Positions 31,094 through 46,509 of a stretch of 64,000 nt of DNA are shown in pieces. The notes under the pieces are model-generated. The model made no database searches, was not told the DNA's origin, and was given only the letters and a program-made list of their open reading frames with translations. The stretch is from the NCBI GenBank assembly GCA_958296135.2, contig CATQHZ020000001.1:3776001-3840000 (forward strand), given 5' to 3'. A program made the position numbers and the translations under genes. Source of the DNA: an uncultured Poribacteria bacterium. GTDB lineage: Bacteria; Poribacteria; WGA-4E; WGA-3G. Position 1 is the first letter of the stretch. Each line of letters begins with the position of its first letter.

Positions 31094-31200
31094 ACGTTAA
31101 TAATGCGATTGTTTTAATTATACCACATTTCCGTGCGAAATGCAAATTAAATTGCACTTTTTTGCGGAAAATTATCAAAAAAACGACCGGAAGGCTCAAA

Positions 31201-32613
31201 ATGATAACGAAATCACAGATTGACACCGAAAAATTGCGGGCGAACGCGCCATTTTTCGCGCGCGTGCTCGCGGTGAACAACACGGAGCAGACGCTTCTCT
31301 TCACGCTTGAGAACCTCGGACGGCTGCCAAAAGGGTTCGATGGCGAGGTGTTCCTCCCGTTGTTCGCGCATTCAAACCCGAAAATTCGCTGTCTCGCCGT
31401 GAAAAACGTCGGGAAATTGAAAGACGAAGCGTTCTTTGAGGCAGTGTCATCGTTCGCGCGTGCCGAGAAAAACACGCTGTCTCGCCGCGAGGCAGTGTCG
31501 GCAATCGGCAGGCTCAAAACCGAGAAGGCGATTCCGGTGCTGAGTCAGTTCCTGACAGACCCGGATCCGAAGATTATCCTGCAGGCAGTGCGCGGATTGC
31601 TCTGCTTCAAGGAGCACCCAGAAGTCCAGCAGTGCTTAACGCCGCTTTGCGAACATCCCAATGAGCTCCTCCGGGAACACGTCACGCAGGCGTTGGCACC
31701 TGTTCGTGCGTCCGAAAGCATCGCGCATAGCCGGCGAAAACTCCCGCATTCTATCAGCCCCACCTTCCTGAAAAACGTGGTTGTCTGTGCGGATGTCAGT
31801 GAAGCTTTGCAAACGATTCCTGCAGAGTCAGTGCATCTCACGTTCACGTCGCCGCCCTACTACAACGCGCGCGATTACACGATTTTTGAGAGTTACGAGG
31901 CGTATCTCGAATTTCTCGTCGCCGTTTTCGCGGAGACGCATCGGATAACGAAAGAGGGAAGGTTCCTCGTGCTGAACACGTCCCCGGTCATCGTGCCGCG
32001 GATTAGCCGCGCGCATGCGAGCAAGCGGTATGCTATCCCTTACGACATCCACCCGCGCCTCACCGAAATCGGGTGGGAGTTTATTGATGACATCACTTGG
32101 GTGAAACCGGATTATGCCGCGAAGAACCGGAACGGCGGTTTCTTTCAACACCGCAAACCGCTCGGTTACAAGGCGAATTCTGTCACCGAATCGGTTATGG
32201 TTTATCGGAAGAAAACGGACAAACTGCTCGATTGGAACATGCGGCAATATGACGCGGAAACAATTGAAGCCAGCAGAATCTTGGGCGATTATGACAAGAC
32301 AAATGTCTGGCAAATCAATCCCTCAGCGGACAAAGTGCATCCGGCCGTCTTTCCGGTTGAGTTGGCGGTGCGCGTTATTCAGTTCTACTCCTTCAAAGGC
32401 GATTTGGTGTTCGACCCGTTTGGCGGAAGCGGCACCGTTGGCCAGGCGGCAATGGCCCTGGAAAGGTATTTTCTCCTCTGTGAAAAAGAGGCAGAATACG
32501 TGGAACGCGCGATGCAACGGCTTGACGCATCCCTATTCTCCCCCGAACAGCCGCCAAGGAGCCTCTCCTTGGCAGAACTTAACACTGAAGAACGGAGAAA
32601 TCACAAACCGTGA
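31201..32613 (+). CDS. HEAT-repeat / beta-class DNA methyltransferase fusion (probably m4C)
   Basis: N-terminal HEAT repeats; FTSPPY precedes DPFGGSGT; HPAVFP. Confidence 0.88.
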   Translation: MITKSQIDTEKLRANAPFFARVLAVNNTEQTLLFTLENLGRLPKGFDGEVFLPLFAHSNPKIRCLAVKNVGKLKDEAFFEAVSSFARAEKNTLSRREAVSAIGRLKTEKAIPVLSQFLTDPDPKIILQAVRGLLCFKEHPEVQQCLTPLCEHPNELLREHVTQALAPVRASESIAHSRRKLPHSISPTFLKNVVVCADVSEALQTIPAESVHLTFTSPPYYNARDYTIFESYEAYLEFLVAVFAETHRITKEGRFLVLNTSPVIVPRISRAHASKRYAIPYDIHPRLTEIGWEFIDDITWVKPDYAAKNRNGGFFQHRKPLGYKANSVTESVMVYRKKTDKLLDWNMRQYDAETIEASRILGDYDKTNVWQINPSADKVHPAVFPVELAVRVIQFYSFKGDLVFDPFGGSGTVGQAAMALERYFLLCEKEAEYVERAMQRLDASLFSPEQPPRSLSLAELNTEERRNHKP

Positions 32614-33599
32614 CTGTTACTGGAGTCGTCATTAAGAATATCATTCGCAAACTCATCGCGGGTGAAGATTACCGGTCGGAAGTCATTACCCTAATCGATG
32701 CCGAGTTCTTGCAATACGTTGTGGATTTTTTCAAACGCATTGCGCACGCCAAGTTGGAGAATCAAGCCGTAACCGCCGATTGGTATAGAAAGGAACTCCT
32801 CTGCGATGAGTCGCTGACCAAGGAGGAGGTAGCCGTCCATTCGGGCATGAACATGAAAACTATCTCCAATATGTATAACTCGGCGAGCAAGAAAATCGTG
32901 CTAGAAGCATCGTTGGAACACTACGATGCGCTTTACAACGCGATTCATAACCTCACCGAGCAGGACGACGTTGACATAACGTTAACCATAAAACTTCGTC
33001 ACGTAAGCGTTGACCTGAGTCTTAACGAAAGTTTGGTTGTCATCAACACGCTGGCAGTCAAACGTTCGGCACTTCGCGGCGGATTATGGAGCACTGCCGG
33101 GAAACAGGTTGAAAAACCTCTGATGGCAACGCTTTGTGCCCTTTTCCAAGTGCCGAGAAGGTTCTTCGATCAGAGCAATCTTCCGGATTCATTGCGTGAA
33201 GCGGATTTTTATCTTCTCGATGAGACCGGCACGCGGCACCGCTGTGAGGTGAAACTCATGGGAAAAGGTAACCCTGAAAGTGCAGACGTGGTTTACGCGC
33301 GCGGCAGCCGTGTGTTGGTTGCCAACAAACTCTCTGACGCAAACAAAGCGCAGATGGCATCAAATGACATCCTTTGGGTCGAACTCCAAGCAATCCACGG
33401 TTATCAGCGATTTGAGCAGGTGCTCAAGGCACTTTCTATTCCGTGTCGCCCGTTTACCGGAGAACTGCAACCAGCGTTGGATAAAATTTTGCCTGTCATA
33501 CTCTCCGATGACGTGCAGGCCTCCGTCACGCCAGAGGCAATTCTACAAGAACAGGAGCAAGGGCTGAATCACCTTTCAGAACTATTGGTTAAATTGTAA
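32610..33599 (+). CDS. type II restriction endonuclease, CfrBI-like
   Basis: Coupled to the MTase; 'KNII.KL..G.DYR', 'LRGGLWSTAGKQVEKPLM', D...EVKLMGKGNPES (PD-(D/E)xK). Confidence 0.8.
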   Translation: MTVTGVVIKNIIRKLIAGEDYRSEVITLIDAEFLQYVVDFFKRIAHAKLENQAVTADWYRKELLCDESLTKEEVAVHSGMNMKTISNMYNSASKKIVLEASLEHYDALYNAIHNLTEQDDVDITLTIKLRHVSVDLSLNESLVVINTLAVKRSALRGGLWSTAGKQVEKPLMATLCALFQVPRRFFDQSNLPDSLREADFYLLDETGTRHRCEVKLMGKGNPESADVVYARGSRVLVANKLSDANKAQMASNDILWVELQAIHGYQRFEQVLKALSIPCRPFTGELQPALDKILPVILSDDVQASVTPEAILQEQEQGLNHLSELLVKL

Positions 33600-34312
33600 T
33601 GAAAATCTTAGGTATTGACACCGCAACCCCTATCGGAAGCGTCGCCTTAATTGATGGCGAAAGCCTCATCGCAGAGCATACGCTCAATATCGTGCAAGCG
33701 CACTCCTCGCGACTCATGCCTGCGATTGACACCGTCCTCAAATGGGGCGACATCACCGCGGCGGAACTCGACGGATGCGCCGTCGGCATCGGACCGGGTT
33801 CCTTCACCGGCATCCGCATCGGCATCGCAACAATCAAATCGCTCTGTTACGCACTTGATAAACCGATTGTCGGCGTTTCAACGCTAGAATCCATCGCCTA
33901 TAACCTGCGCTGGACTGAAGGCATCATCTGCCCAATACTCGATGCACGACGGAACGAGATTTACGGGGCTATCTTCCGCGGTGGAGACAAATGGCAACGC
34001 CTCAGCGATGATTGCTGTGTAACGGTTGCGTCATTTCTTGCGGAATTTAGCAAGACTAGAAGGGTTCTCCTATCGGAAATCGAGACCGGGGGGACGCACC
34101 TACTGCCGTGCACCTTCGTTGGCGATGGACTGGAGATTTATGCGGATGCGGTGCAGGCGGTACTAGGCGAAGAAATCCGCTTCGCCGATGCAATTTTCAA
34201 TGTGCCGCGCGGTGCGACAGTCGCACACCTCGGCGCGCAACGCTTACAAAATGGGGACAGCGATAGTTATTGGACTTTAGTGCCGAACTATGTTAGAATA
34301 GGGCTCTATTGA
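33599..34312 (+). CDS. tsaB: tRNA threonylcarbamoyladenosine biosynthesis protein
   Basis: LGIDTAT, HS..LMP.I, GPGSFTGIRIG, LDARRNEIY. Confidence 0.95.
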   Translation: MKILGIDTATPIGSVALIDGESLIAEHTLNIVQAHSSRLMPAIDTVLKWGDITAAELDGCAVGIGPGSFTGIRIGIATIKSLCYALDKPIVGVSTLESIAYNLRWTEGIICPILDARRNEIYGAIFRGGDKWQRLSDDCCVTVASFLAEFSKTRRVLLSEIETGGTHLLPCTFVGDGLEIYADAVQAVLGEEIRFADAIFNVPRGATVAHLGAQRLQNGDSDSYWTLVPNYVRIGLY

Positions 34313-37300
34313 GGAGGGAAACTACCTTGTTTAAGGATTATCTCAGAGAAATAGAGCAGAAATGGCACAGCGGCCGCGCAACCGAACATACCTATCGCTC
34401 GAATCTGGAGCGGTTGCTCACCGATTTTCTGAAATCCGATGAGTATACCGTAATCAACGAACCGACGCACCTCGGGCGCAACGCACCGGACATGCTCATC
34501 CTCAAGAATCAGCAACCAGTCGGCTACATTGAGGCGAAAAATATTGGGGCTAACCTTGACAAAGTTGAGGAAACAGAGCAGCTCCAACGCTACCGAAACG
34601 GGTTGGAAAACCTGATTCTGACAGATTACCTCGAATTCCGCCTGTATCGCCAGAGCAAGAAGCACCAAAGCGTTCGGCTTGGTGATGTCTCGTCGCAGCG
34701 GCACTTTCAGTATCTTCCTGAAAACGAATCCGACATCAGGGATTTGCTGAACGCCTTCATCTACGGACATCAACCTGTCGTCGTCATCAGTCCGGAAGAT
34801 TTGGCGGCGCGGCTGAGTCAGAAGGCACTTCTCCTTCGCTACGGGATAAGCCGTATCCTAGAGAACGACAACGCCTCAAAACTCGGCGAACTCTTCGCGG
34901 CGTTCAAAGAGCATCTGGTTGAAGGGCTATCTCCATCGCAATTCGCGGACATGATAGCCCAAACGATGACTTACGGCCTGTTCGCCGCCCGCGCCGAACA
35001 CAAAAGCGGGCCGTTTACGCGAGAGAGTGCCGTGAAAGGTTTCTTGAAAACCAGTCCCTTCCTGCACGCAATTTTCACGCGTGCCGATAAGGGGCTCCAG
35101 GAAGATGCAAACCTGCTTTCACAAGAAATCCTGCTTGACGCGGATCTGAATTGGATTGTGGATGACTTGGTTGCATTCCTTGAGGCAAGCGATATCCATA
35201 ACCTCCTTAAGGGTGTTGCCCAAGGCGATGCCATTGTTCATTTTTATGAGACATTCTTAAGGGCATATAATCCGAACGAAAAGAAGTTGCGCGGGGTATA
35301 CTACACGCCGGATGCGGTTGTCTCTTACATTGTGCGCAGCGTCCACCAGATTTTGCAGAGAGACTTCGGTATTCCGAATGGGCTCGCCGCCACCGAAACC
35401 GTCGCGCAACACAGCGGCGCAGCGCGAACCCAACCGCGGGTAACAATTCTCGACCCGGCCACCGGCACCGGCACCTTCTTACGGCACGTCGTTGACAAGG
35501 TGCATGATGTCTACATAACCGCGCAAGGCAATTCTCCGCAAACCTGGCCCGATTACGTTCGGAAACATCTCCTGCCGCGCCTCTTCGGTTTTGAACTGAT
35601 GGTAGCACCGTATGCGATGTGTCACCTCAGTTTAACGCAGCACCTTGTCAGAATGGGTTACCACTTTACGGAAGACGAACGGCTGCATGTTTATCTCACC
35701 AATACGCTGGACGAACGTGACTTGCAGCTCTATCTCGCTGAGGAGAACGCAATCGCGAAAGAGGGCGATGCCGCCATCAAAATTAAGAAGTTATATCAAC
35801 TGATGGTTATCCTTGGCAACCCGCCTTATGCTGTCCACTCGGCAAACAAAAGCGATTGGATTCACAACCTGCTGCGCGGTTTCGATGGTAGCGACACTGA
35901 GACAGCGAACTACTTCCAAGTTGATGGGCAGCCACTCAACGAGAGAAACCCGAAGATGCTCAACGATGACTACGTCAAATTTTTCCGATTCGCGCAGTGG
36001 CATATTGAACGGACAGGTTATGGCGTGCTCGGCCTCATTACCAACCACGGCTACCTTGACAATCTCACCTTCCGGGGAATGCGGGAAAGTTTGATGCGCA
36101 CCTTTGACGAAATTTACCTGCTGAACCTGCACGGGAATCTGAGAAAAAAAGAGAAAACTCCCGACGGTGGGAAAGACGAGAACGTGTTTGATATCATGCA
36201 AGGAGTTGCAATCGGCTTCTTTGTCAAAAAGGAAGGAGACGCGAACCTACCCTGCCGTGTCTTTTACGCCGACAGCTGGGGAAACCGCGCAAGCAAAATG
36301 AATTGGTTGGCGGAAAACGATATCCACACCACACCGTGGCGAGAAATTTCGCCTACGTCGCCGCACTACTTCTTTGTGCCTAAGGATGCAACCTACGTGG
36401 AAGAATACGAAAGCGGCATAAGCGTTAAGGAAATTTTCCAGGTCAATTCCGTAAGTATCTCTAGCGGCAGAGACAAATTAACGATTCACTGGACGCGAGA
36501 AGACGTACTACAAGTGGTTCGTCAATTCCGCTCGCTGTCGGTAGACGAGGCCTGTCAACGATTCAGTCTCGCCGAAGGGACAGTAGCACTTATACGAGCG
36601 GATCTGGACGAGCCCCCAGAGAGCCCTGGTACCGCCGAGCATATTGTGCCAATTTGCTATCGGCCGTTTGATACGCGCTTTACGTATTACACGGGACGCT
36701 CTGGCGGCTTTCACGACAGGCCGCGACGTGATGTAATGCAGCATTTCCTCAATGCTTCAAATGTGGGGTTGGTTACGGCTCGGTACAATCCACAAGCGTC
36801 TGGGTGGTGTCATGCCTTCGTCTCTCACAATATGCTAGCCATCTCCAACCAATACTACTTTTTTCCGCTCTACCGTTACCCAGATGGCGGAGAAGAACCT
36901 GAACCGAATTTTGCGGAAGGATTTGCCGAGCAACTCGCCCAAAATTTGGGGTTGCGTTTTATCGGATGCGGCTGTGGCGATTTGCACGAAACCTTTGGCG
37001 CGACAGATGTCCTACACTACCTCTATGCCGTGCTCTATGCTCCCAGTTATCGGGAACGCTACGCAGAATGCCTCAAAACTGATTTTCCGCGTATCGCGTT
37101 CACACATCAGCGAAACTTTTTCCAAGTGTTGTGTAAATTTGGCAAACGGTTAGTCAATTGCCATATCCCAACTTCAGAGGGCGAGGTTCACAAAAGCGAA
37201 CCTCGCTTCGATGTGGTGGGCAGCAACGTTGTCGGGCAAATTCGCTATGATGCATCAGTACCCCAGGTCTGGATAAATAAGCGTCAGTATTTTGAGGGAG

Positions 37301-37497
37301 TCATTCCGGAAGTGTGGCAATTTCAGATTGGCGCATATTCCCCTGCGCAAAATTGGCTGAAAGTTCGGAAGGGACGCATCTTGCAACCGGAGGATATTCG
37401 GCACTATCAGTCCATCTGCCAAGCCCTGCGTGAAACCCTATCGGTGATGGCAGAAATCGATAAGGAAATTGAACGGCATGGGGGATGGCCCTTGTAG
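34309..37497 (+). CDS. fused restriction-modification enzyme (type IIG / ISP-like; N6-adenine MTase)
   Basis: N-terminal PD...IEAK nuclease, GVYYTP, LDPATGTGTF, GNPPY, C-terminal YRPFD...DFPRI specificity region. Confidence 0.88.
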   Translation: MRRETTLFKDYLREIEQKWHSGRATEHTYRSNLERLLTDFLKSDEYTVINEPTHLGRNAPDMLILKNQQPVGYIEAKNIGANLDKVEETEQLQRYRNGLENLILTDYLEFRLYRQSKKHQSVRLGDVSSQRHFQYLPENESDIRDLLNAFIYGHQPVVVISPEDLAARLSQKALLLRYGISRILENDNASKLGELFAAFKEHLVEGLSPSQFADMIAQTMTYGLFAARAEHKSGPFTRESAVKGFLKTSPFLHAIFTRADKGLQEDANLLSQEILLDADLNWIVDDLVAFLEASDIHNLLKGVAQGDAIVHFYETFLRAYNPNEKKLRGVYYTPDAVVSYIVRSVHQILQRDFGIPNGLAATETVAQHSGAARTQPRVTILDPATGTGTFLRHVVDKVHDVYITAQGNSPQTWPDYVRKHLLPRLFGFELMVAPYAMCHLSLTQHLVRMGYHFTEDERLHVYLTNTLDERDLQLYLAEENAIAKEGDAAIKIKKLYQLMVILGNPPYAVHSANKSDWIHNLLRGFDGSDTETANYFQVDGQPLNERNPKMLNDDYVKFFRFAQWHIERTGYGVLGLITNHGYLDNLTFRGMRESLMRTFDEIYLLNLHGNLRKKEKTPDGGKDENVFDIMQGVAIGFFVKKEGDANLPCRVFYADSWGNRASKMNWLAENDIHTTPWREISPTSPHYFFVPKDATYVEEYESGISVKEIFQVNSVSISSGRDKLTIHWTREDVLQVVRQFRSLSVDEACQRFSLAEGTVALIRADLDEPPESPGTAEHIVPICYRPFDTRFTYYTGRSGGFHDRPRRDVMQHFLNASNVGLVTARYNPQASGWCHAFVSHNMLAISNQYYFFPLYRYPDGGEEPEPNFAEGFAEQLAQNLGLRFIGCGCGDLHETFGATDVLHYLYAVLYAPSYRERYAECLKTDFPRIAFTHQRNFFQVLCKFGKRLVNCHIPTSEGEVHKSEPRFDVVGSNVVGQIRYDASVPQVWINKRQYFEGVIPEVWQFQIGAYSPAQNWLKVRKGRILQPEDIRHYQSICQALRETLSVMAEIDKEIERHGGWPL

Positions 37498-39459: not shown

Positions 39460-40861
39460 TTTATTTGCAGTCGCCGTGGATTTGTGGTAGAATGTAGTTA
39501 CCGTTGGGGGCGAGACGGCTAGGTGCGGCTGCCCGCCGTGTCTCTCGCCCCACCTATCTAGCAGAAGGTGACAACCAACGGGAACGGTGACGCTATGGCA
39601 CTACGAGCCCAGAAGATAGCACTCAATCCAACTGAGGAACAGGTCGAGGCATTTAACCTGCATGTGCAATTCGCACGCGCCGCCTATAATGCCGCGCATT
39701 CTGATTGGAACGCCGACCGCCGTAACTCCCTCTATGATTTGAAGAAAATCTTCAACTCACGGAAGCGCGAGGTGTTCCCCGAATTCGCCGCGTGTTCTCA
39801 AAACGCAGGCAAGACTGCTATCCACGCTTTCGGTGATGCTATCGCCAGATACAAATCGGGACAGAATGGTGCGCCCAAACGGAAGACGCATAAGTCTCGC
39901 CCCGCGTTCCAGATTGATAATGGTGTGGATAGCGTCAAAATAACGGAGGACGGCAAACACGTCGTCCTCCCGATAATTGGACAGGTTAGGTTGCATGAAA
40001 CCCCTCGATGGACAGGTGAAGTTCGCCGTGCTTTCGTCAAACGCATCGCACATCGTTGGTATCTCAGCATCCTCGTCGACGTTAACGAACCGGAACCGCC
40101 TGATAGTTCCAACCTGCCCGCCGCAGGTTGTGATGTCGGCATCTCTGCCCTCGCCACGATGGACGATGGCACTGTCTATGAAAATCCGCGTGCCTTGCGC
40201 GTCAATGAACGCAAACTACGCCGTGCAAATAAGGCACTCGCCCGCAAGACGTTCATGAGCCGCAACTGGTGGAAGGCGAAGGAACGCCTCGCCCGCCTGC
40301 ATGCCCGTATCGCCAATGTGCGAACCGATGCCCATCATCAGGCGACACATCGCATCCTGCAAGGCATCTCGGCACTTGGCATCGAGAGCCTCACCGTCAA
40401 AGGTTTGATGAAAAATCGCAAGCTGAGCAAGGCACTCGCCGATGCAAGTCTTGGCGGCTTCCTCGTCAAACTCAAATATAAGGCGGTGTGGCGTGGCATC
40501 CGCATTGTGTCAGCAGATAAGTTCTGGCCGTCAACACAGCGATGCAGTTCTTGTGGATACGTCAAACGTGGCGAATTCAAACTGACGCTCAAGGACAGAG
40601 AATATCACTGCGGCATCTGCGGATGGGTAGAGGACAGAGACGTTAACGCCGCTATAAACCTTCGACAGCTCGCCTCAAGCACTGAGGAGAGTCAAAACGC
40701 CTGTGGAGATGCTGTAACACCTACTTTGGTAGGCTGGCATCAGAACCCGCGTGTGCGCGGAAGAAGCAGGAAACCGCTGACCGAACAGAGACTCGTAGAC
40801 TTTGCACAGGTTTCCAGATAAGTCTACATTTGACGAGATGCTCATAGGTTATGTAGTGCGG
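39460..40861 (+). mobile_element. non-autonomous tnpB-only element, IS607-like; left end uncertain
   Basis: No tnpA; GC hairpin at 39507-39551; 3' region ends ...GTAGTGCGG, resembling IS607-type right ends. Confidence 0.5.
39595..40821 (+). CDS. tnpB: RNA-guided endonuclease TnpB (IS200/IS605/IS607 superfamily)
   Basis: RuvC-I GCDVG, RuvC-II IESL, CSSCG/CGICG Zn finger, RuvC-III DRDVNAAINL; TTGCAG-N17-TAGAAT promoter at 39465-39493. Confidence 0.93.
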   Translation: MALRAQKIALNPTEEQVEAFNLHVQFARAAYNAAHSDWNADRRNSLYDLKKIFNSRKREVFPEFAACSQNAGKTAIHAFGDAIARYKSGQNGAPKRKTHKSRPAFQIDNGVDSVKITEDGKHVVLPIIGQVRLHETPRWTGEVRRAFVKRIAHRWYLSILVDVNEPEPPDSSNLPAAGCDVGISALATMDDGTVYENPRALRVNERKLRRANKALARKTFMSRNWWKAKERLARLHARIANVRTDAHHQATHRILQGISALGIESLTVKGLMKNRKLSKALADASLGGFLVKLKYKAVWRGIRIVSADKFWPSTQRCSSCGYVKRGEFKLTLKDREYHCGICGWVEDRDVNAAINLRQLASSTEESQNACGDAVTPTLVGWHQNPRVRGRSRKPLTEQRLVDFAQVSR

Positions 40862-41174: not shown

Positions 41175-41936
41175 ATGGCAGCTCAAACATCCAAAATCGA
41201 GTGGACAGAATCAACTTGGAACCCCGTCCGCGGATGCACGCGGGTCTCAGAAGGGTGCCGGTTCTGTTATGCTGAACGGATCGCGTCGCGATTTTCTGAC
41301 GAAGGCATGGCATACGAGGGCCTCGCCGAAAACACCAAAGCCGGTCCGCGCTGGACACAGGAAGTCAGGATTGTCCGAGAAGCGTTCAAGGCACCCCTGA
41401 AATGGAGAAAACCGCGCCGAATTTTCGTCAATTCCATGAGCGACATCTTCCATGAAAAGATCGAATTATCGACGATTCAGGAGCTCTTCGATGTCATGAA
41501 GAAAGCGGATTGGCACCAATTCCAGCTCTTGACGAAGCGAGCAGAACGGCTATTGGCATGCAACGCCGCCTTGCCGTGGCCGCCGAACGTCTGGATGGGA
41601 GTGAGCGTGGAAGATGAGCAAGTTATGCATCGGATAGATGCGCTGCGGCAAACCGATGCGCGCATCAAATTCCTCTCACTTGAACCGCTCCTCGGTCCGC
41701 TTCCGAATTTAGACTTAAGCGGGATAGACTGGGTTATCGTCGGCGGAGAATCCGGTCCGGGTGCACGTCCGATGGATAAAGCATGGGTGATTGCCATCCG
41801 AGAGCGGTGTGCGGAGGCGGGTGTGCCGTTTTTCTTTAAGCAGTGGGGTGGCGTGCGTAAATCGAAAACGGGGCGCGAGTTGGATGGAAAATTTTATGAC
41901 GAGATGCCGCACACGCCGCTATTGCAAATGAGATAG
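41175..41936 (+). CDS. DUF5131 / phage Gp37-Gp68 family protein
   Basis: SKIEWT..TWNP..GC..VS.GC..CYA, FVNSMSD.FH, LTKR, SLEPLLG, GGESG, FFKQWGG. Confidence 0.92.
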   Translation: MAAQTSKIEWTESTWNPVRGCTRVSEGCRFCYAERIASRFSDEGMAYEGLAENTKAGPRWTQEVRIVREAFKAPLKWRKPRRIFVNSMSDIFHEKIELSTIQELFDVMKKADWHQFQLLTKRAERLLACNAALPWPPNVWMGVSVEDEQVMHRIDALRQTDARIKFLSLEPLLGPLPNLDLSGIDWVIVGGESGPGARPMDKAWVIAIRERCAEAGVPFFFKQWGGVRKSKTGRELDGKFYDEMPHTPLLQMR

Positions 41937-41956: not shown

Positions 41957-43579
41957 TCATGGAATCGCCCGTATCTGGCGGATTTCGGAAACCTCAGACA
42001 CCGGCGGCGAGATCGGTTCATGGAATGCCATCTTCGCGGCAATTCTCCCGTAACTGTAACCATCACGGCGGGCTAACAATCGTAAATCCGCAGTGGTGCC
42101 GCTTTTTCGCGAATCTTTCACATCCGGTGCGAAATATTTGACACGGCATCTACGCGGCTTCCCTTTGGGCGTTTTATCAAAGCAGTTAATAACCCCGCGC
42201 CATTTCGTCCCATCTTGCGTTGTGAGCTCAACATGGTCCAACCGCCGGAACCCGTTGCTTTCCGCCCGTTTTTCATTCGGGAGGAAGAAGCCCGGGGCCT
42301 TCATCTTGAAAGTCTTGCGCAGATTATCACGCCGTCCATATCCCTCCGCTTGAATCACGTCAACTTGGAGAGAACTTGGTTGTTTCGGGAGACACGCAAC
42401 CGCGGCCGCGTCGTAGTAATGCGTCTTTGGCAAGCCTGCGAGGTTTCGGTTATGTGCTGTTTTTCCGCCAGTCCCGCTGAGAACGGGCAACTTCATCGCC
42501 TTGAGTATTTCAAAGAGTTTCCAGCGAATCGTGTTCACTGCAGCAGCATCAGAAAGCCCTTTCTTTGACTTGCTCACAGCGGATTTGACCTTTTTCGCAA
42601 ACTTTTCACCGCATTTCGCTTCCAACGCGTCACCGACAAGATTGCCCTTTTTCGCGTTGCACGGACGACACGCCATCGTGAGATTGTCGGGGCGACTGGA
42701 ACCGCCTTTCGCTTTAGGGAGGATGTGTTCAACCTCAAGGCGAACATTTTTGTCCCCACAATAGGCGCACTTTCGTCCGGTGAGTTCCAAGAGGTATTCG
42801 CGAATTTCGCGCCCGTGAAGTGTGCCTTGTTGATATTGAATCCCATGAATGTTGGGCTTGTCCATCAACTGCATATCAAACTTCACCGTTTCAATCGCGA
42901 GCCGTGTTATCGGAGAGACTTTGCGGTATCGCCGCGTCCACGTCTCTATATTGAAAACACGGGACATGAGGCTCGGTGCAACCCATCCGTTATCCGCGCG
43001 CTTTTGATGAGCAACACGGACGCGCTTCCAACGCTTCTTTTGGCGTTGATTCGTTTTCGTTTTCGGCAGACGTTCCCACCGATACCGCGGATCTCGCAAT
43101 TGTGCCCACGAGACGCGATTGAAGTGATTCTGCGTTTGACTCGTATCCGTGCCTTCTGGGGCCTTGGCGCGTTGATACGTCCATCCCTCGTCAGTCAGCA
43201 CCGGCACTTTTCGTCCGCGGTTTGCCCAACGCGCAGGACGATACCGTAGATTCCGAGTGCGGCGACCGCGGCGGAATCCAGACCGGTTAGTCAACGCTTT
43301 CTTTATCTGCCTTCCACGATGGTGGAGTTCCGCGGCATAGATGATATCGCCAGTCTCCGATGTGATGGCGATGCCCGATGTTTTTGAACCCGGATCCCAA
43401 CTCAGGGTGTAGTTCCCGGTAACAATCTCATCGGCAGGCACCGCTTTTTTCAGGATGATTGTAAACGGATGTCGGTTCCAAACAGCCGCCTCACCACGCT
43501 TCAATAAACGTCGCGCTATTGCCGGGTGGCACGGTTCCAATACGTTCTTGTTTCTATCAATCACAAAAACTTTTGACAT
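41957..43579 (-). CDS. iscB: RNA-guided endonuclease IscB (540 aa), CRISPR-associated
   Basis: PLMP-like N-terminus (VLEPCHPAIARRLL...PFTIIL), RuvC-I WDPGSK, Arg-rich bridge helix RRGRRTRNLRYR, RuvC-II IETVKFD, HNH CAYC..EHILP..GG...NL..AC..CN..KG, RuvC-III THYYDA; RBS GGAGAGG. Confidence 0.95.
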   Translation of the reverse strand: MSKVFVIDRNKNVLEPCHPAIARRLLKRGEAAVWNRHPFTIILKKAVPADEIVTGNYTLSWDPGSKTSGIAITSETGDIIYAAELHHRGRQIKKALTNRSGFRRGRRTRNLRYRPARWANRGRKVPVLTDEGWTYQRAKAPEGTDTSQTQNHFNRVSWAQLRDPRYRWERLPKTKTNQRQKKRWKRVRVAHQKRADNGWVAPSLMSRVFNIETWTRRYRKVSPITRLAIETVKFDMQLMDKPNIHGIQYQQGTLHGREIREYLLELTGRKCAYCGDKNVRLEVEHILPKAKGGSSRPDNLTMACRPCNAKKGNLVGDALEAKCGEKFAKKVKSAVSKSKKGLSDAAAVNTIRWKLFEILKAMKLPVLSGTGGKTAHNRNLAGLPKTHYYDAAAVACLPKQPSSLQVDVIQAEGYGRRDNLRKTFKMKAPGFFLPNEKRAESNGFRRLDHVELTTQDGTKWRGVINCFDKTPKGKPRRCRVKYFAPDVKDSRKSGTTADLRLLARRDGYSYGRIAAKMAFHEPISPPVSEVSEIRQIRAIP

Positions 43580-43594
43580 AATGTCCTCTCCTGC

Positions 43595-43857
43595 TACTGC
43601 AGAAGGTAATGTGAGCCTCGCCAATGTTATCTCTGCTTAATTCAGGGTTGACTGCCTCATCTTGACAAGAGACTGTTTACAGAGCCCCCACAGTGCTCCC
43701 GACTGGCTCCATCGGCGATCCGACGTATCTGGAGGTGTGATAACAGAGATAACGTAGTTAGTGAAAACTTAAGCTAGATACCGATTCAATTAGGCAACAA
43801 GGATTCCACCCCTTGTTCCCCGCTCCGCAAGCGGAGCTAACATGGTTTCATTGCAAC
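43595..43857 (-). ncRNA. omega RNA (HEARO-like) scaffold with repeat-complementary 5' region
   Basis: On the minus strand, in order: TAGCTTAAG, CTACGTT, ACACC, GCCAGTC, TAAACAG, GGCAGT, AACATTGGCGAGG, ATTACC; long-range stem GTTATCTCTG/CAGAGATAAC; directly upstream of iscB; exact ends inferred. Confidence 0.85.
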
Positions 43858-43858
43858 T

Positions 43859-43950
43859 TTGCTGTCAACCTCCCGCAACATTTGCGTTATTGGAGGTAGA
43901 CAGCAAGTCCTTACGCCGCAAGCACGGATGCACACGGCGTGATGCCGAGC
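43859..43950 (+). promoter_or_regulatory. putative CRISPR leader with inverted repeat
   Basis: TTGCTGTCAACCTCC-N16-GGAGGTAGACAGCAA ending 44 bp before the first perfect repeat; degenerate repeats are at the far end. Confidence 0.6.
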
Positions 43951-45260
43951 GTTGCAACTTTACCATGCTCAAGCGGTAACTGAAGGATTTAAGCCGACTC
44001 CGCGCAGCCGGAAACGCGTTGCAACTTTACCATGCTCAAGCGGTAACGGTTCCATCTCGATGCGAGTTTGCGTCGTGCGGCACTGGTTGCAACTTTACCA
44101 TGCTCAAGCGGTAACGCTGCGCTTTGCGGTTTAGCTCTCCCCACGCGATTGTTGCAACTTTACCATGCTCAAGCGGTAACTCGTAAGGATAGGCGAGTGC
44201 CTTGTCAATGAGGCGTTCGTTGCAACTTTACCATGCTCAAGCGGTAACTTTACCTAAACTATAATGCGTAAAATTGACAATCTCTAGTTGCAACTTTACC
44301 ATGCTCAAGCGGTAACGCGTGTCGTAAGATTCTGCCGCCGCGTAGATGGAATGCGTTGCAACTTTACCATGCTCAAGCGGTAACCTTCATCGTAAGCCTC
44401 TTCATCGTAGGTGAAGAATTGTTGCAACTTTACCATGCTCAAGCGGTAACCGCTTGATGAACCTGCTGTTGATGAACCCCAGCAGGGCAGGGCGGCGTTG
44501 CAACTTTACCATGCTCAAGCGGTAACCAGCATCTTGAAAAACAAGGTGCGGGTGCTGCGAGCGTTGCAACTTTACCATGCTCAAGCGGTAACAGGTTTTT
44601 ACGTCTACTTGCGCCGGCCCGCCAGCCGGCGCGGTTGCAACTTTACCATGCTCAAGCGGTAACTGAACACGAAGGGCGGGGTGACGCGCATGGGCGTGAG
44701 TTGCAACTTTACCATGCTCAAGCGGTAACCTCTGTATAACCTATGTTAATCCCGTCAAATCTAGTTGCAACTTTACCATGCTCAAGCGGTAACCTAAAAT
44801 ATCCATTACATCTTTAGGCATTGCCAGCCTCGTTGCAACTTTACCATGCTCAAGCGGTAACTTAAGGTCTTCGTGAAGCCCTCCCTGCCCGTCCAGGTTG
44901 CAACTTTACCATGCTCAAGCGGTAACCATTGCAGACGAGCATTGATGTGAAGACCGGACGACTGTTGCAACTTTACCATGCTCAAGCGGTAACGTCATAG
45001 ATGGCTTCTAGCATAGGCGTGAGACGCGGTGTTGCAACTTTACCATGCTCAAGCGGTAACGCGCAGCGTCAGTCTCGGTAGCCGGTGCGGGTGCCGGTGT
45101 TGCAACTTTACCATGCTCAAGCGGTAACTTTTGGGGTTGATTTGCGCTCATGGCGTTGCCGACAGGTTGCAACTTTACCATGCACAAGCGGTAACAAATA
45201 CTGACAGCGATACGACTTCCCGCCAGAACCGTTTCAACTTTACCATGCTCAGGTGGTAAC
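43951..45260. CRISPR. CRISPR array: 20 repeats (30 bp, GTTGCAACTTTACCATGCTCAAGCGGTAAC) and 19 spacers (34-46 bp)
   Basis: 18 identical repeats; repeat 19 (45166) has 1 change and repeat 20 (45231) has 3; spacers are unique. Confidence 0.99.
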
Positions 45261-45275
45261 CGGCAACTATGTTAA

Positions 45276-45304
45276 AGTATACCACGCTTTCTTCTGAATT
45301 GCAA
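45276..45304 (-). promoter_or_regulatory. sigma70 promoter firing into the array toward iscB
   Basis: Minus strand TTGCAA-N17-TATACT with extended TG; same architecture as the promoters at 8007 and upstream of tRNA-Ala. Confidence 0.75.
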
Positions 45305-45378: not shown

Positions 45379-46302
45379 TCATACAAGTTTGTTCAAATCG
45401 ACAGGTAACCCGACAGATTTCATTTCCTGAGCCAGTCTCAGTTTCCATCCATCCTCGCTCTTCATTGGAATATAAAGGAGTCCATCAAGATCGGAGGGGT
45501 TTTCTAGTTCCCCTTTAACGAGCAAACAGACTCTTCCGCGTTCCAACTTTCCTTGAAAATAGCCGAGTTCTAGGATGACGTTTTGACGAGCCCGAAGTTT
45601 GAGATCCTCATCTGCTTCATTCCTTAGGGCACCAACATCATCGGGAGTCAGCAAAGCAATAGCAAACCTAACGTTGTTTGCCAATTGCTCAAGCTTCTCA
45701 ATAATCGTTAGACCGGAGTTGGGTTGGTTTTCAAGGATGATTTCCTTGAATCCTAAATCCCTGAGGAACAAAACGACAGCGTTTTTCGCCGCATCGTCCC
45801 GTCCATGCACGATAAACACTGAAGTGTCCGCAGGAGTGTCTGAAGGTAGATTACGCAGATTTATCTTTCCCACCGTTTCAGATCTGGCTTCCACCGTAGA
45901 ACCTTCTTGTGCTATCTGTAACCGTGTTAACTGTTCCGGATCCAAAACCGATATTTCGCCATCATCAACAGAATCCACCTCTTTTGCCTTCGGGTGATAG
46001 GAGAGGTAGGAACGTTCCCCTTTTCTTTCTTCGATGATAGCGAGCCATATACCGCCGCAACTCCCTTCGCAGCACAGCGTTTTTTGTCTGTCGCAGAGTT
46101 TGATTTCAAGTTGATGCGAAGCCCCCCAGGGACAAGCAATGTCAATAAATTCGTGAGGTTGTGCCGGCGTGGAAAGAAGGACTTTCCATGCACCACCTCG
46201 TTGCAAGATACCATGCACCTTCTTACCTGTCGTATCTACGATAAGAAGGTCTTTCCCATCAAATGCCCCTGAAGGAAGCATTCCATTATAAGGTCTATAC
46301 AT
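45379..46302 (-). CDS. TIR-like nucleotide-binding domain protein (CAP12/Pycsar-type TIR at the C-terminus)
   Basis: VFIVHGRD, TIIEKLE, LLTPDD, RARQNVILELGYF, PSDLDG; RBS AAGGAG. Confidence 0.88.
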   Translation of the reverse strand: MYRPYNGMLPSGAFDGKDLLIVDTTGKKVHGILQRGGAWKVLLSTPAQPHEFIDIACPWGASHQLEIKLCDRQKTLCCEGSCGGIWLAIIEERKGERSYLSYHPKAKEVDSVDDGEISVLDPEQLTRLQIAQEGSTVEARSETVGKINLRNLPSDTPADTSVFIVHGRDDAAKNAVVLFLRDLGFKEIILENQPNSGLTIIEKLEQLANNVRFAIALLTPDDVGALRNEADEDLKLRARQNVILELGYFQGKLERGRVCLLVKGELENPSDLDGLLYIPMKSEDGWKLRLAQEMKSVGLPVDLNKLV

Positions 46303-46509
46303 TATTTCTCCTTCCACCCGCAGTTCCAGAAAACCCGCACCAGCATCGTTACATTTCAAGGGAAACCGTTAAGTTCTCTCATACCATCGGTGCATGAGCG
46401 CAGCGTTACCATAACCCGACACCGCAATGGCGATGCGAAGCCGGTAACTGAACGTACCTGCATCCTTTTCTTTTAATTATACACGAAATGGTTAGAAATG
46501 TCAATTTTT

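Follow-up and report, generated by a model that had tools for sequence, protein, structure and literature searches.

The stretch analyzed here, called the window below, is a segment of 64,000 nucleotides (nt) from the genome of an uncultured Poribacteria bacterium (GenBank assembly GCA_958296135.2, contig CATQHZ020000001.1, positions 3,776,001 to 3,840,000), which we take to be a sponge-symbiont-type bacterium. The genome sequence amounts to 5.19 Mb in four contigs, is 94.7% complete and contains one IscB (RRXRR) gene. IscB is a small nuclease and the ancestor of Cas9. In the window, iscB lies downstream of a CRISPR array and of an omega RNA, and this locus is the subject of our analysis. Its features are, in window coordinates:

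45304-45276, minus strand: promoter-like site found by a consensus scan (TTGCAA, 17 nt, then TATACT with TG ahead of it).
43951-45260, minus strand: CRISPR array with 20 repeats (30 nt each) separated by 19 spacers (34-46 nt).
43861-43950, minus strand: linker of 90 nt from the last repeat to the anti-repeat, with a conserved hairpin at 43861-43904.
43777-43860, minus strand: anti-repeat region of 84 nt, from the minimum free energy fold, cofolding and covariation.
43606-43841, minus strand: omega RNA scaffold of the HEARO family (Rfam RF02033).
43579 (ATG) to 41957-41959 (stop), minus strand: iscB, encoding 540 amino acids (aa), from Pfam, alignment, an AlphaFold2 (AF2) model and Foldseek.

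Along the minus strand, the order is promoter-like site, array, linker, anti-repeat, omega RNA and iscB, with the omega RNA scaffold overlapping the anti-repeat at its 5' end and the 5' untranslated region of iscB at its 3' end. An earlier note, made from the letters of the window alone, had described a promoter, a 20-repeat array, an omega RNA and an intact 540-aa iscB that follow one another without gaps. All four elements were recovered, but not their immediate succession, as the linker of 90 nt and the anti-repeat of 84 nt intervene. The array repeat, in RNA sense (minus strand), is GTTACCGCTTGAGCATGGTAAAGTTGCAAC. Eighteen of the 20 copies are perfect, the two promoter-proximal ones having 3 and 1 mismatches, and all 20 matches of this repeat in the 5.19-Mb genome lie in this array. 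The region contains six promoter-like sites against 2.6 expected from shuffles; the one ahead of the array (TTGCAA..TGGTATACT) is also kept at the syntenic locus of a same-genus genome (G065a) and resembles the leader promoter of a type I-B array of the genome studied here, TTGACA..TGGTATCAT, with an extended -10 element. Promoters inside the repeats (TGGTAAAGT in the window repeat) were considered as a general mechanism and rejected, as a TAnnnT hexamer was read by eye in just four of the 11 related repeat families. When contigs of four public sequencing runs (one study, two samples) were aligned with the locus, they broke at each repeat, with all spacers present at similar depth. These contigs contained no spacer variants or new joints in the window array, and no RNA run containing the locus was found among the public runs listed.

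The open reading frame (ORF) of 540 aa matched the Pfam families RRXRR (1.6e-55) and HNH (2e-12) and presents a PLMP/RRXRR N-terminus, a split RuvC domain and an inserted HNH domain. Invariant in 11 relatives are D62, E230, H387 and D390 of RuvC, H285 and N308 of HNH and the four cysteines of the zinc ribbon. By sequence, the best matches of the protein in the PDB were TbaIscB (4e-37, 131 bits) and OgeuIscB (1e-21), with other IscBs at 80-87 bits, and a Foldseek search with the AF2 model also placed IscB structures on top (8csz, E 1e-18). This model was built from 11 sequences and is of middling confidence, with a predicted local distance difference test (pLDDT) score of 68.1. The array-linked IscBs are longer than canonical ones (518-621 versus 427-456 aa), and most of the extra length falls after the arginine-rich bridge helix (RWANR) and before RuvC-II (APSL). 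This is the site, flanked by FNNR and LTP motifs, at which insertions resembling the recognition (REC) lobe have been described (PMC13180657). At the REC site the insertion measures about 75 aa in the window protein (about residues 124-197), about 140 aa in the related genus g6 and about 190 aa in genome G069; it is reduced to about 20 aa in same-phylum relatives lacking an array and is absent in the outgroup. In the AF2 model the insertion is predicted, with moderate confidence, to be mostly beta, and because the confidence of the model is middling (pLDDT 68) we make no claim of a REC fold.

The omega RNA matched RF02033 at E 3e-16, its 83.4 bits lying just above the gathering score of 83, and the corresponding scores in relatives were 64-76 bits. 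Upstream of its core, three anti-repeat segments (GUUGCAAU, ACCAUGUU and CGGUA) pair with the whole repeat, with two extra hairpins between the segments. An anti-repeat strand with two inserted hairpins was also seen at three other loci, and at every related locus the cofolded repeat, from about position 3 to position 30, paired with the stretch immediately 5' of the omega RNA core. Across an alignment of 11 loci, repeat positions 3-10 covary with the anti-repeat: positions 4-6 read ACC, TCC, ATC, CTC, TAC or TGA, and their partners GGT, GGA, GGT, GAG, GTA or TCA. Taking eight repeat/anti-repeat pairs and 12 pairs of the linker hairpin together, 93.2% of the cells for these 20 pairs were paired and eight pairs were altered on both sides. 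None of 500 shuffles reached any of the five measures used, and slid controls were 26-51% paired. Four of the 12 linker hairpin pairs are altered on both sides across the 11 loci; the linker sequence itself is conserved across loci and is therefore no spacer. Good pairing of the G069 repeat was confined to its own anti-repeat (-28.6, versus -11.4 or weaker with the others). The predicted guide topology is that of Cas9, namely 5'-spacer-repeat paired to anti-repeat-scaffold, and the last spacer and repeat would continue in cis into the omega RNA, in the manner of a naturally occurring single guide.

To place the locus among its relatives, 176 genomes of the phylum and the flanks of the hits were searched, yielding 11 loci in 10 genomes, this genome included. 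All 11 arrays belong to one repeat family and lie directly upstream of iscB on the same strand, with 4-28 homologous repeats each. The family has the form GTTnnCGCTTGrGCATGkTnnnGTTGCAAC, and the last 8 nt are identical in all 11 consensuses. This pattern occurs at least three times in those 10 of the 176 genomes alone; the others have it 0-1 time per strand, like the backwards control. The genomes carrying related array loci are probably Poribacteria. Among 78 related loci from one-genome-per-species collections, only the two closest had an array upstream of iscB, and none of 155 outgroup loci (76 from genomes and 79 from metagenomes) had one directly upstream. A metagenome scan with the protein alignment recovered distant IscBs only, at no more than 50% identity. 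A maximum-likelihood tree of 25 rows, from which a truncated copy (G112c) and a long outlier (L017) were left out, grouped the 16 IscBs of the phylum into one clade (100/100), in which the five without an array formed a single nested clade (100/99). Because the array-less copies form this single nested clade, the simplest reading of the tree suggests one gain of the array followed by one loss. The earlier note had named close homologs without arrays as a refuting outcome; this was contradicted, as all ten other loci of the CRISPR-bearing subclades have a homologous array, each in the same place and orientation. One contig of the G065 genome (C137) carries two different IscB-array loci about 20 kb apart (L121 and L122), with differing repeats and proteins of 552 and 592 aa. 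At another locus (L125, genome G160), a lone perfect repeat lies 317 nt upstream of the remaining array, which seems to have been split by an insertion.

The locus appears to be inherited in place. The G065a locus is syntenic with the window, including genes for EPSP synthase, the array, iscB and genes for DUF5131, a flippase and a Type ISP enzyme, and genus g6 has four loci that share synteny among themselves. In the 64 kb, none of 52 greedily chosen ORFs of at least 100 aa, nor one shorter ORF, matched a Cas or Y1 transposase family, although a smaller ORF of the size of Cas2 would escape this search; this agrees with the earlier note, which had found no cas1, cas2, cas4, cas6 or tnpA there. 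Likewise, none of 110 ORFs within about 7 kb of the ten related loci matched these families at E 1e-8 or better, a threshold through which a weak Cas2 could slip. The domestication of IscB proposed at the outset fits the evidence: the gene is single-copy, Y1 TnpA was not found near the 11 loci, and the position is syntenic in the same-genus genome and among the four g6 genomes. We do not count the locus among mobile elements of the IS200/IS605 type, given one copy, no Y1 transposase found and a syntenic position; transposon ends were not searched.

The conserved arrangement bears on whether array and nuclease are neighbors by chance, a mobile IscB element having inserted beside an orphan type I array. 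The repeat end GTTGCAAC recalls the ATTGAAAC end of type I repeats, and a TnpB element lies 1.1 kb away, both of which speak for such a history. We nonetheless regard it as very improbable, since the arrangement is conserved in 11 loci, the anti-repeat covaries with the repeat, the repeat family is found beside iscB only, and the genome has one IscB copy with no transposase found. The narrower proposal that the array is an orphan of the type I-B or I-D systems of the genome was rejected, because its repeat is unlike their repeats and unique to the IscB array. Together, the sequence comparisons show that the array, the omega RNA and an IscB with intact catalytic residues form one conserved unit in related genomes.

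The contents of these arrays differ between close relatives. Between genomes G150 and G171, identity is 98.9% for iscB, 99.1% for the omega RNA and 94.7% over the 300 nt upstream of the array, and their arrays (eight and five spacers) have no spacer in common. We conclude from this comparison that the arrays turn over between close relatives. The earlier note had taken the long homogeneous array of the window as a sign of ongoing acquisition, which overstates the case for this genome, as the turnover emerges from comparing relatives only.

A candidate target was found for a related array. Spacer 23 of the 26 in the IscB array of G077 matched 36 of 36 positions on an 80-kb contig (C3) binned with the related genome G148 (L239, L262-L265). 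This contig has 44.8% GC, against 54% for the chromosome of the genome studied here, and encodes phage tail-like ORFs (baseplate hub/lysozyme, 7e-17; tape-measure-like, 3e-5) and an endonuclease (4e-9). It is also matched weakly (31/37) by a type I-B spacer of G077. This exact match to a phage-like sequence provides indirect support for a role in defense. Window spacers had no match in their own genome among the two candidates scored, the best being 21 nt with one mismatch, which argues against self-targeting or transposon homing. A protospacer search with the spacers of the G065a array likewise gave no match. Two other candidates were set aside: spacer 8 of G065b, which agrees at 32 of 36 positions with a cohesin/dockerin-type gene in the genome studied here, was not used to define the target-adjacent motif (TAM) because of four mismatches and a chromosomal target, and "spacer 1" of G077, which matches nine genomes, is a conserved chromosomal sequence beside a pseudo-repeat.

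Neither of the RNase III families PF14622 and PF00636 was found in this genome (94.7% complete), and six-frame searches of it with the RNase III signature motif were also negative. PF14622 was found in none of 159 genomes of the order (158 relatives and this genome), that is, in 0/111, 0/11, 0/29 and 0/7 relatives of its four families; outside the order, 14 of the 17 genomes of the phylum have it. All 11 IscB-array loci fall in the order without PF14622. Since RNase III was not found in the order, guide maturation cannot follow the type II-A route and would use another nuclease. Some type II-C systems also work without RNase III.

An alternative view is that the arrays are relics, captured once and no longer growing, with IscB guided by the last spacer in cis and the remaining spacers being dead weight. 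Adaptation genes were found in none of the 11 loci, processing in trans has no obvious enzyme in the absence of RNase III, genome G150 retains its locus without any Cas1, Cas2 or Cas6, and the contigs of the four public runs hold no spacer variants in the window array; all of this speaks for a relic. We nevertheless consider this view unlikely. Near-identical loci have no spacers in common, 18 of the 20 window repeats are perfect, the anti-repeat pairing covaries across lineages, and the 36/36 match to a phage-like contig suggests recent capture. Moreover, the arrays of at least 13 repeats (six arrays in five genomes) all occur in genomes with a type I-B-type Cas1. Taking the evidence as a whole, we favor the reading that the window carries a CasIscB locus, in which a non-mobile IscB and its omega RNA are coupled to a CRISPR array and most likely serve as a defense system (probability of roughly 80%). 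In outline, the interpretation given in the earlier note is thereby supported. IscB would use the spacers as guides to cut DNA beside a 3' TAM.

The supply of spacers may come from elsewhere in the genome. It has two Cas1 genes in all, both outside the window. One belongs to a type I-B system (Cas6, Cas7, Cas5, Cas3, Cas4, Cas1 and Cas2) with an array of more than 70 repeats of 30 nt and spacers of 33-41 nt, the same geometry as that of the IscB array. The other is the Cas4-Cas1 fusion of a type I-D system, which also has Csc2, Cas6 and Cas2 and adjoins repeats of 37 nt. The repeats differ among the three arrays. The earlier suggestion of Cas1-Cas2 encoded elsewhere is borne out by these two modules and, in G069, by one spacer common to an IscB array and a type I-B array. 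This spacer, number 17 of 27 in the IscB array, corresponds in reverse complement to spacer 96 of 169 in the type I-B array, with the same 37-nt ends and 36 of 37 positions identical. It emerged from a comparison of 148 IscB-array spacers with 991 type I spacers from 15 arrays.

Further observations concern the end at which these arrays might grow. In seven of the 11 arrays, decay is strongest in the first repeat, next to the promoter (3, 7, 9, 2, 3+5, 2+1 and 6 mismatches), and the last repeat is singly decayed in none of the 11. For comparison, in four of the seven type I-B arrays with the leader end in view the decay lies at the trailer (promoter-distal) end, as it also does in the type I-D array of this genome. 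The sole spacer common to syntenic IscB arrays (spacer 1 of G173, which is spacer 2 of G150) is found at the promoter end. The four repeats of G150 nearest the omega RNA carry one common variant base, which is expected if the last repeat is the copied one. On the opposite strand, the final letters of the flank beside the last repeat are CATAGC or TATAGC at five loci and TATAGG at three; GATAGC closes the type I-B leaders of this genome, G069 and G077. The dinucleotide CA stands at the position of the protospacer-adjacent motif (PAM) of one IscB protospacer and of one type I-B protospacer (the 31/37 match).

From these data we propose that the type I-B Cas1-Cas2-Cas4 module, located about 575 kb away, would supply spacers in trans. 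New repeat-spacer units would enter at the omega-RNA-proximal end, with the linker, read on the plus strand, serving as leader for integration, and the array would grow on the strand opposite to that read by IscB. Such a reversed reading would turn the 5' PAM of a type I system into the 3' TAM needed by a Cas9-like enzyme, and the newest spacer would sit beside the omega RNA, in cis, as a natural single guide. As a whole, this scheme, in which the type I-B module loads an array grown from the omega-proximal end and read from the other strand in a lineage that lost RNase III, is put forward tentatively, and we hold it at somewhat short of even odds.

Arrays could also be filled without Cas1-Cas2, by recombination, by whole-array exchange between strains or by a route linked to IscB or the omega RNA. 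Genomes G150 and G173 have unique spacers without an intact Cas1, the array flanks are highly conserved and could serve recombination, and duplicated spacers (spacers 4 and 6 of G152, 18 and 24 of G069) show that recombination occurs within arrays. Against such a route, which we judge even a little less probable than a relic array, stand the spacer lengths of 35-39 nt, which match those of type I arrays, and the spacer with the exact ends of a type I-B spacer; in addition, the loss of cas genes in G150 and G173 could be recent, since G173 retains Cas2, Cas6 and a type I-B array of 46 repeats.

Several results weigh against an active defense system supplied by the type I-B module. The link to type I-B consists of one shared spacer, the sole full match in the 148 by 991 comparison, and the evidence for the PAM and TAM is one case each, the type I-B match having six mismatches. 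Type I leaders and IscB-array flanks had no significant similarity (best score 21 versus 15.1 ± 2.2, reached by 5 of 300 shuffles), and the IscB and type I-B repeats agree at about half of the positions, counted by eye. G150, assembled as a single contig and 95% complete, has no Cas1, Cas2 or Cas6 and yet eight unique spacers, and G173 has a Cas1 fragment only. The decay of the first repeat could reflect relaxed selection, because that repeat follows no spacer in a spacer-repeat CRISPR RNA. Without RNase III, the use of spacers other than the last one has no obvious route. Finally, none of the 19 window spacers was matched in 50,697 phage records (E up to 1), nor did any have a convincing match in the 176 related genomes, a weak negative obtained from the best two candidates per genome; the matches in these genomes were all repeats or repeat-spacer edges.

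The surroundings of the locus contain further genes related to defense or mobility, as well as a gene kept in the same-genus genome:

20186-20530, plus strand: HigB-like toxin.
31162-33599, plus strand: type II restriction-modification pair, an N6/N4 methylase and a CfrBI-like endonuclease.
34309-37497, plus strand: Type ISP restriction enzyme of 1062 aa.
39568-40821, plus strand: solo TnpB, with OrfB_IS605 (1e-24) and Cas12f1-like TNB domains.
41175-41936, plus strand: DUF5131 gene, phage Gp37/Gp68-like, convergent with iscB and also present at the same-genus locus.
45379-46359, minus strand: TIR-domain protein of 326 aa, CAP12/Pycsar-type (4e-37).

Judged by gene content, the IscB locus lies in a defense-rich stretch that is partly conserved in the same-genus genome. 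The solo TnpB gene, 1.1 kb from iscB and between the DUF5131 and flippase genes, was probably inserted recently and has no relation to the IscB unit, since it is absent from the syntenic G065a locus. The TIR-domain gene, directly upstream of the array promoter, is also absent from G065a and is possibly a separate defense gene. An exact match of 19 nt to spacer 17 of the G077 IscB array lies inside the DUF5131 gene (41333-41351; E 4e-4) and may be due to chance. Elsewhere in the assembly, contig C2 (143,886 bp) has 36.8% GC, versus 54.4% for the chromosome, and contigs C3 and C4 have 67% and 60%; these three contigs may be foreign bins or extrachromosomal elements. The chromosome (C1) contains dozens of short clustered repeats with GC-rich palindromic cores (e.g., GGGACAGGCCCTCGCG), which look like repetitive extragenic palindromic (REP)-type elements unrelated to CRISPR arrays.

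The origin of Cas9 from IscB, including how arrays came to be used and where their spacers came from, is still argued from few metagenomic loci. The clade described here offers 11 loci, mostly in well-assembled genomes, that are inherited in place with changing arrays, alongside type I systems and in a host lineage without RNase III. With it, one can test what module fills the array, from which end and in what orientation, and how guides mature without RNase III. If the proposed scheme holds, the locus would be a living example of a type II-like system built from a nuclease of the OMEGA class and a borrowed adaptation module. In addition, both the proteins (518-621 aa, their REC-site insertions graded in size) and the natural RNAs resembling single guides may be of interest to builders of compact genome editors.

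Compared with known systems, the rarity and novelty that the earlier note had attached to the locus were overstated, since CRISPR-associated IscBs have been described before and one has been characterized. According to the literature, CRISPR arrays became associated with IscB several times independently, and the usual position of the array or the omega RNA is upstream of the iscB gene (PMC10734277, PMC10691335, PMC11610941, PMC10734217). The name CasIscB is in use for CRISPR-associated IscB in one report (PMC13180657). Our literature search returned nothing on IscBs of Poribacteria, on array polarity or on the source of spacers, although the loci may already be in the lists of Altae-Tran 2021. 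Within the same search, we did not find in print the array turnover, the decay at the promoter end, the spacer shared with type I-B, the order without RNase III or the 36/36 phage-like match.

The canonical systems of an IscB and its omega RNA, such as OgeuIscB and KraIscB, resemble the window locus in protein family, fold and omega RNA family. Canonical OMEGA elements have one guide set by the flanking DNA and often occur in multiple copies, whereas here we found one copy, in a fixed position, whose single guide is replaced by an array. Among IscBs of solved structure, TbaIscB is the best relative by sequence, as given above, and both proteins have an insertion between the bridge helix (FNNR in TbaIscB, RWANR here) and RuvC-II (LTP and APSL, respectively). 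In the window protein, the insertion is short and mostly beta by prediction, unlike that of TbaIscB, and we do not claim closeness to the stem of Cas9.

Type II systems with Cas9, including the compact type II-D Cas9d (PMC9755519), resemble the locus in guide architecture, in the RuvC and HNH domains and in a target motif expected on the 3' side. The window locus differs in that it lacks a REC lobe, keeps an entire HEARO-type omega RNA, fused to the mRNA leader, as its scaffold and contains no adaptation module, and in that no RNase III was found in the host. We therefore do not class it as type II: the insertion at the REC site is about 75 aa and mostly beta in the model, no cas genes were found in the 64 kb, and no RNase III was found.

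The closest known counterpart by description is DelIscB, a CRISPR-associated IscB of 457 aa that has been characterized and engineered (PMC12660989, citing Altae-Tran et al. 2021). As described there, the omega RNA and iscB of DelIscB follow its array downstream on the same strand, with no cas1, cas2 or cas4 in the locus, and a direct repeat pairs with an anti-repeat in the noncoding RNA in a cis topology, all as in the window; whether and how the array RNA is processed to use different spacers is given there as unknown. The window protein is longer (540 aa versus 457 aa), with an insertion of about 75 aa at the REC site that reaches about 190 aa in relatives. A further difference from DelIscB, as described, lies in the long arrays found here and in their co-occurrence with type I-B and I-D systems in an order without RNase III. 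On this comparison, in which DelIscB was taken by its description and not by its sequence, we file the window locus as a new member, and with its relatives a new clade, of CasIscB.

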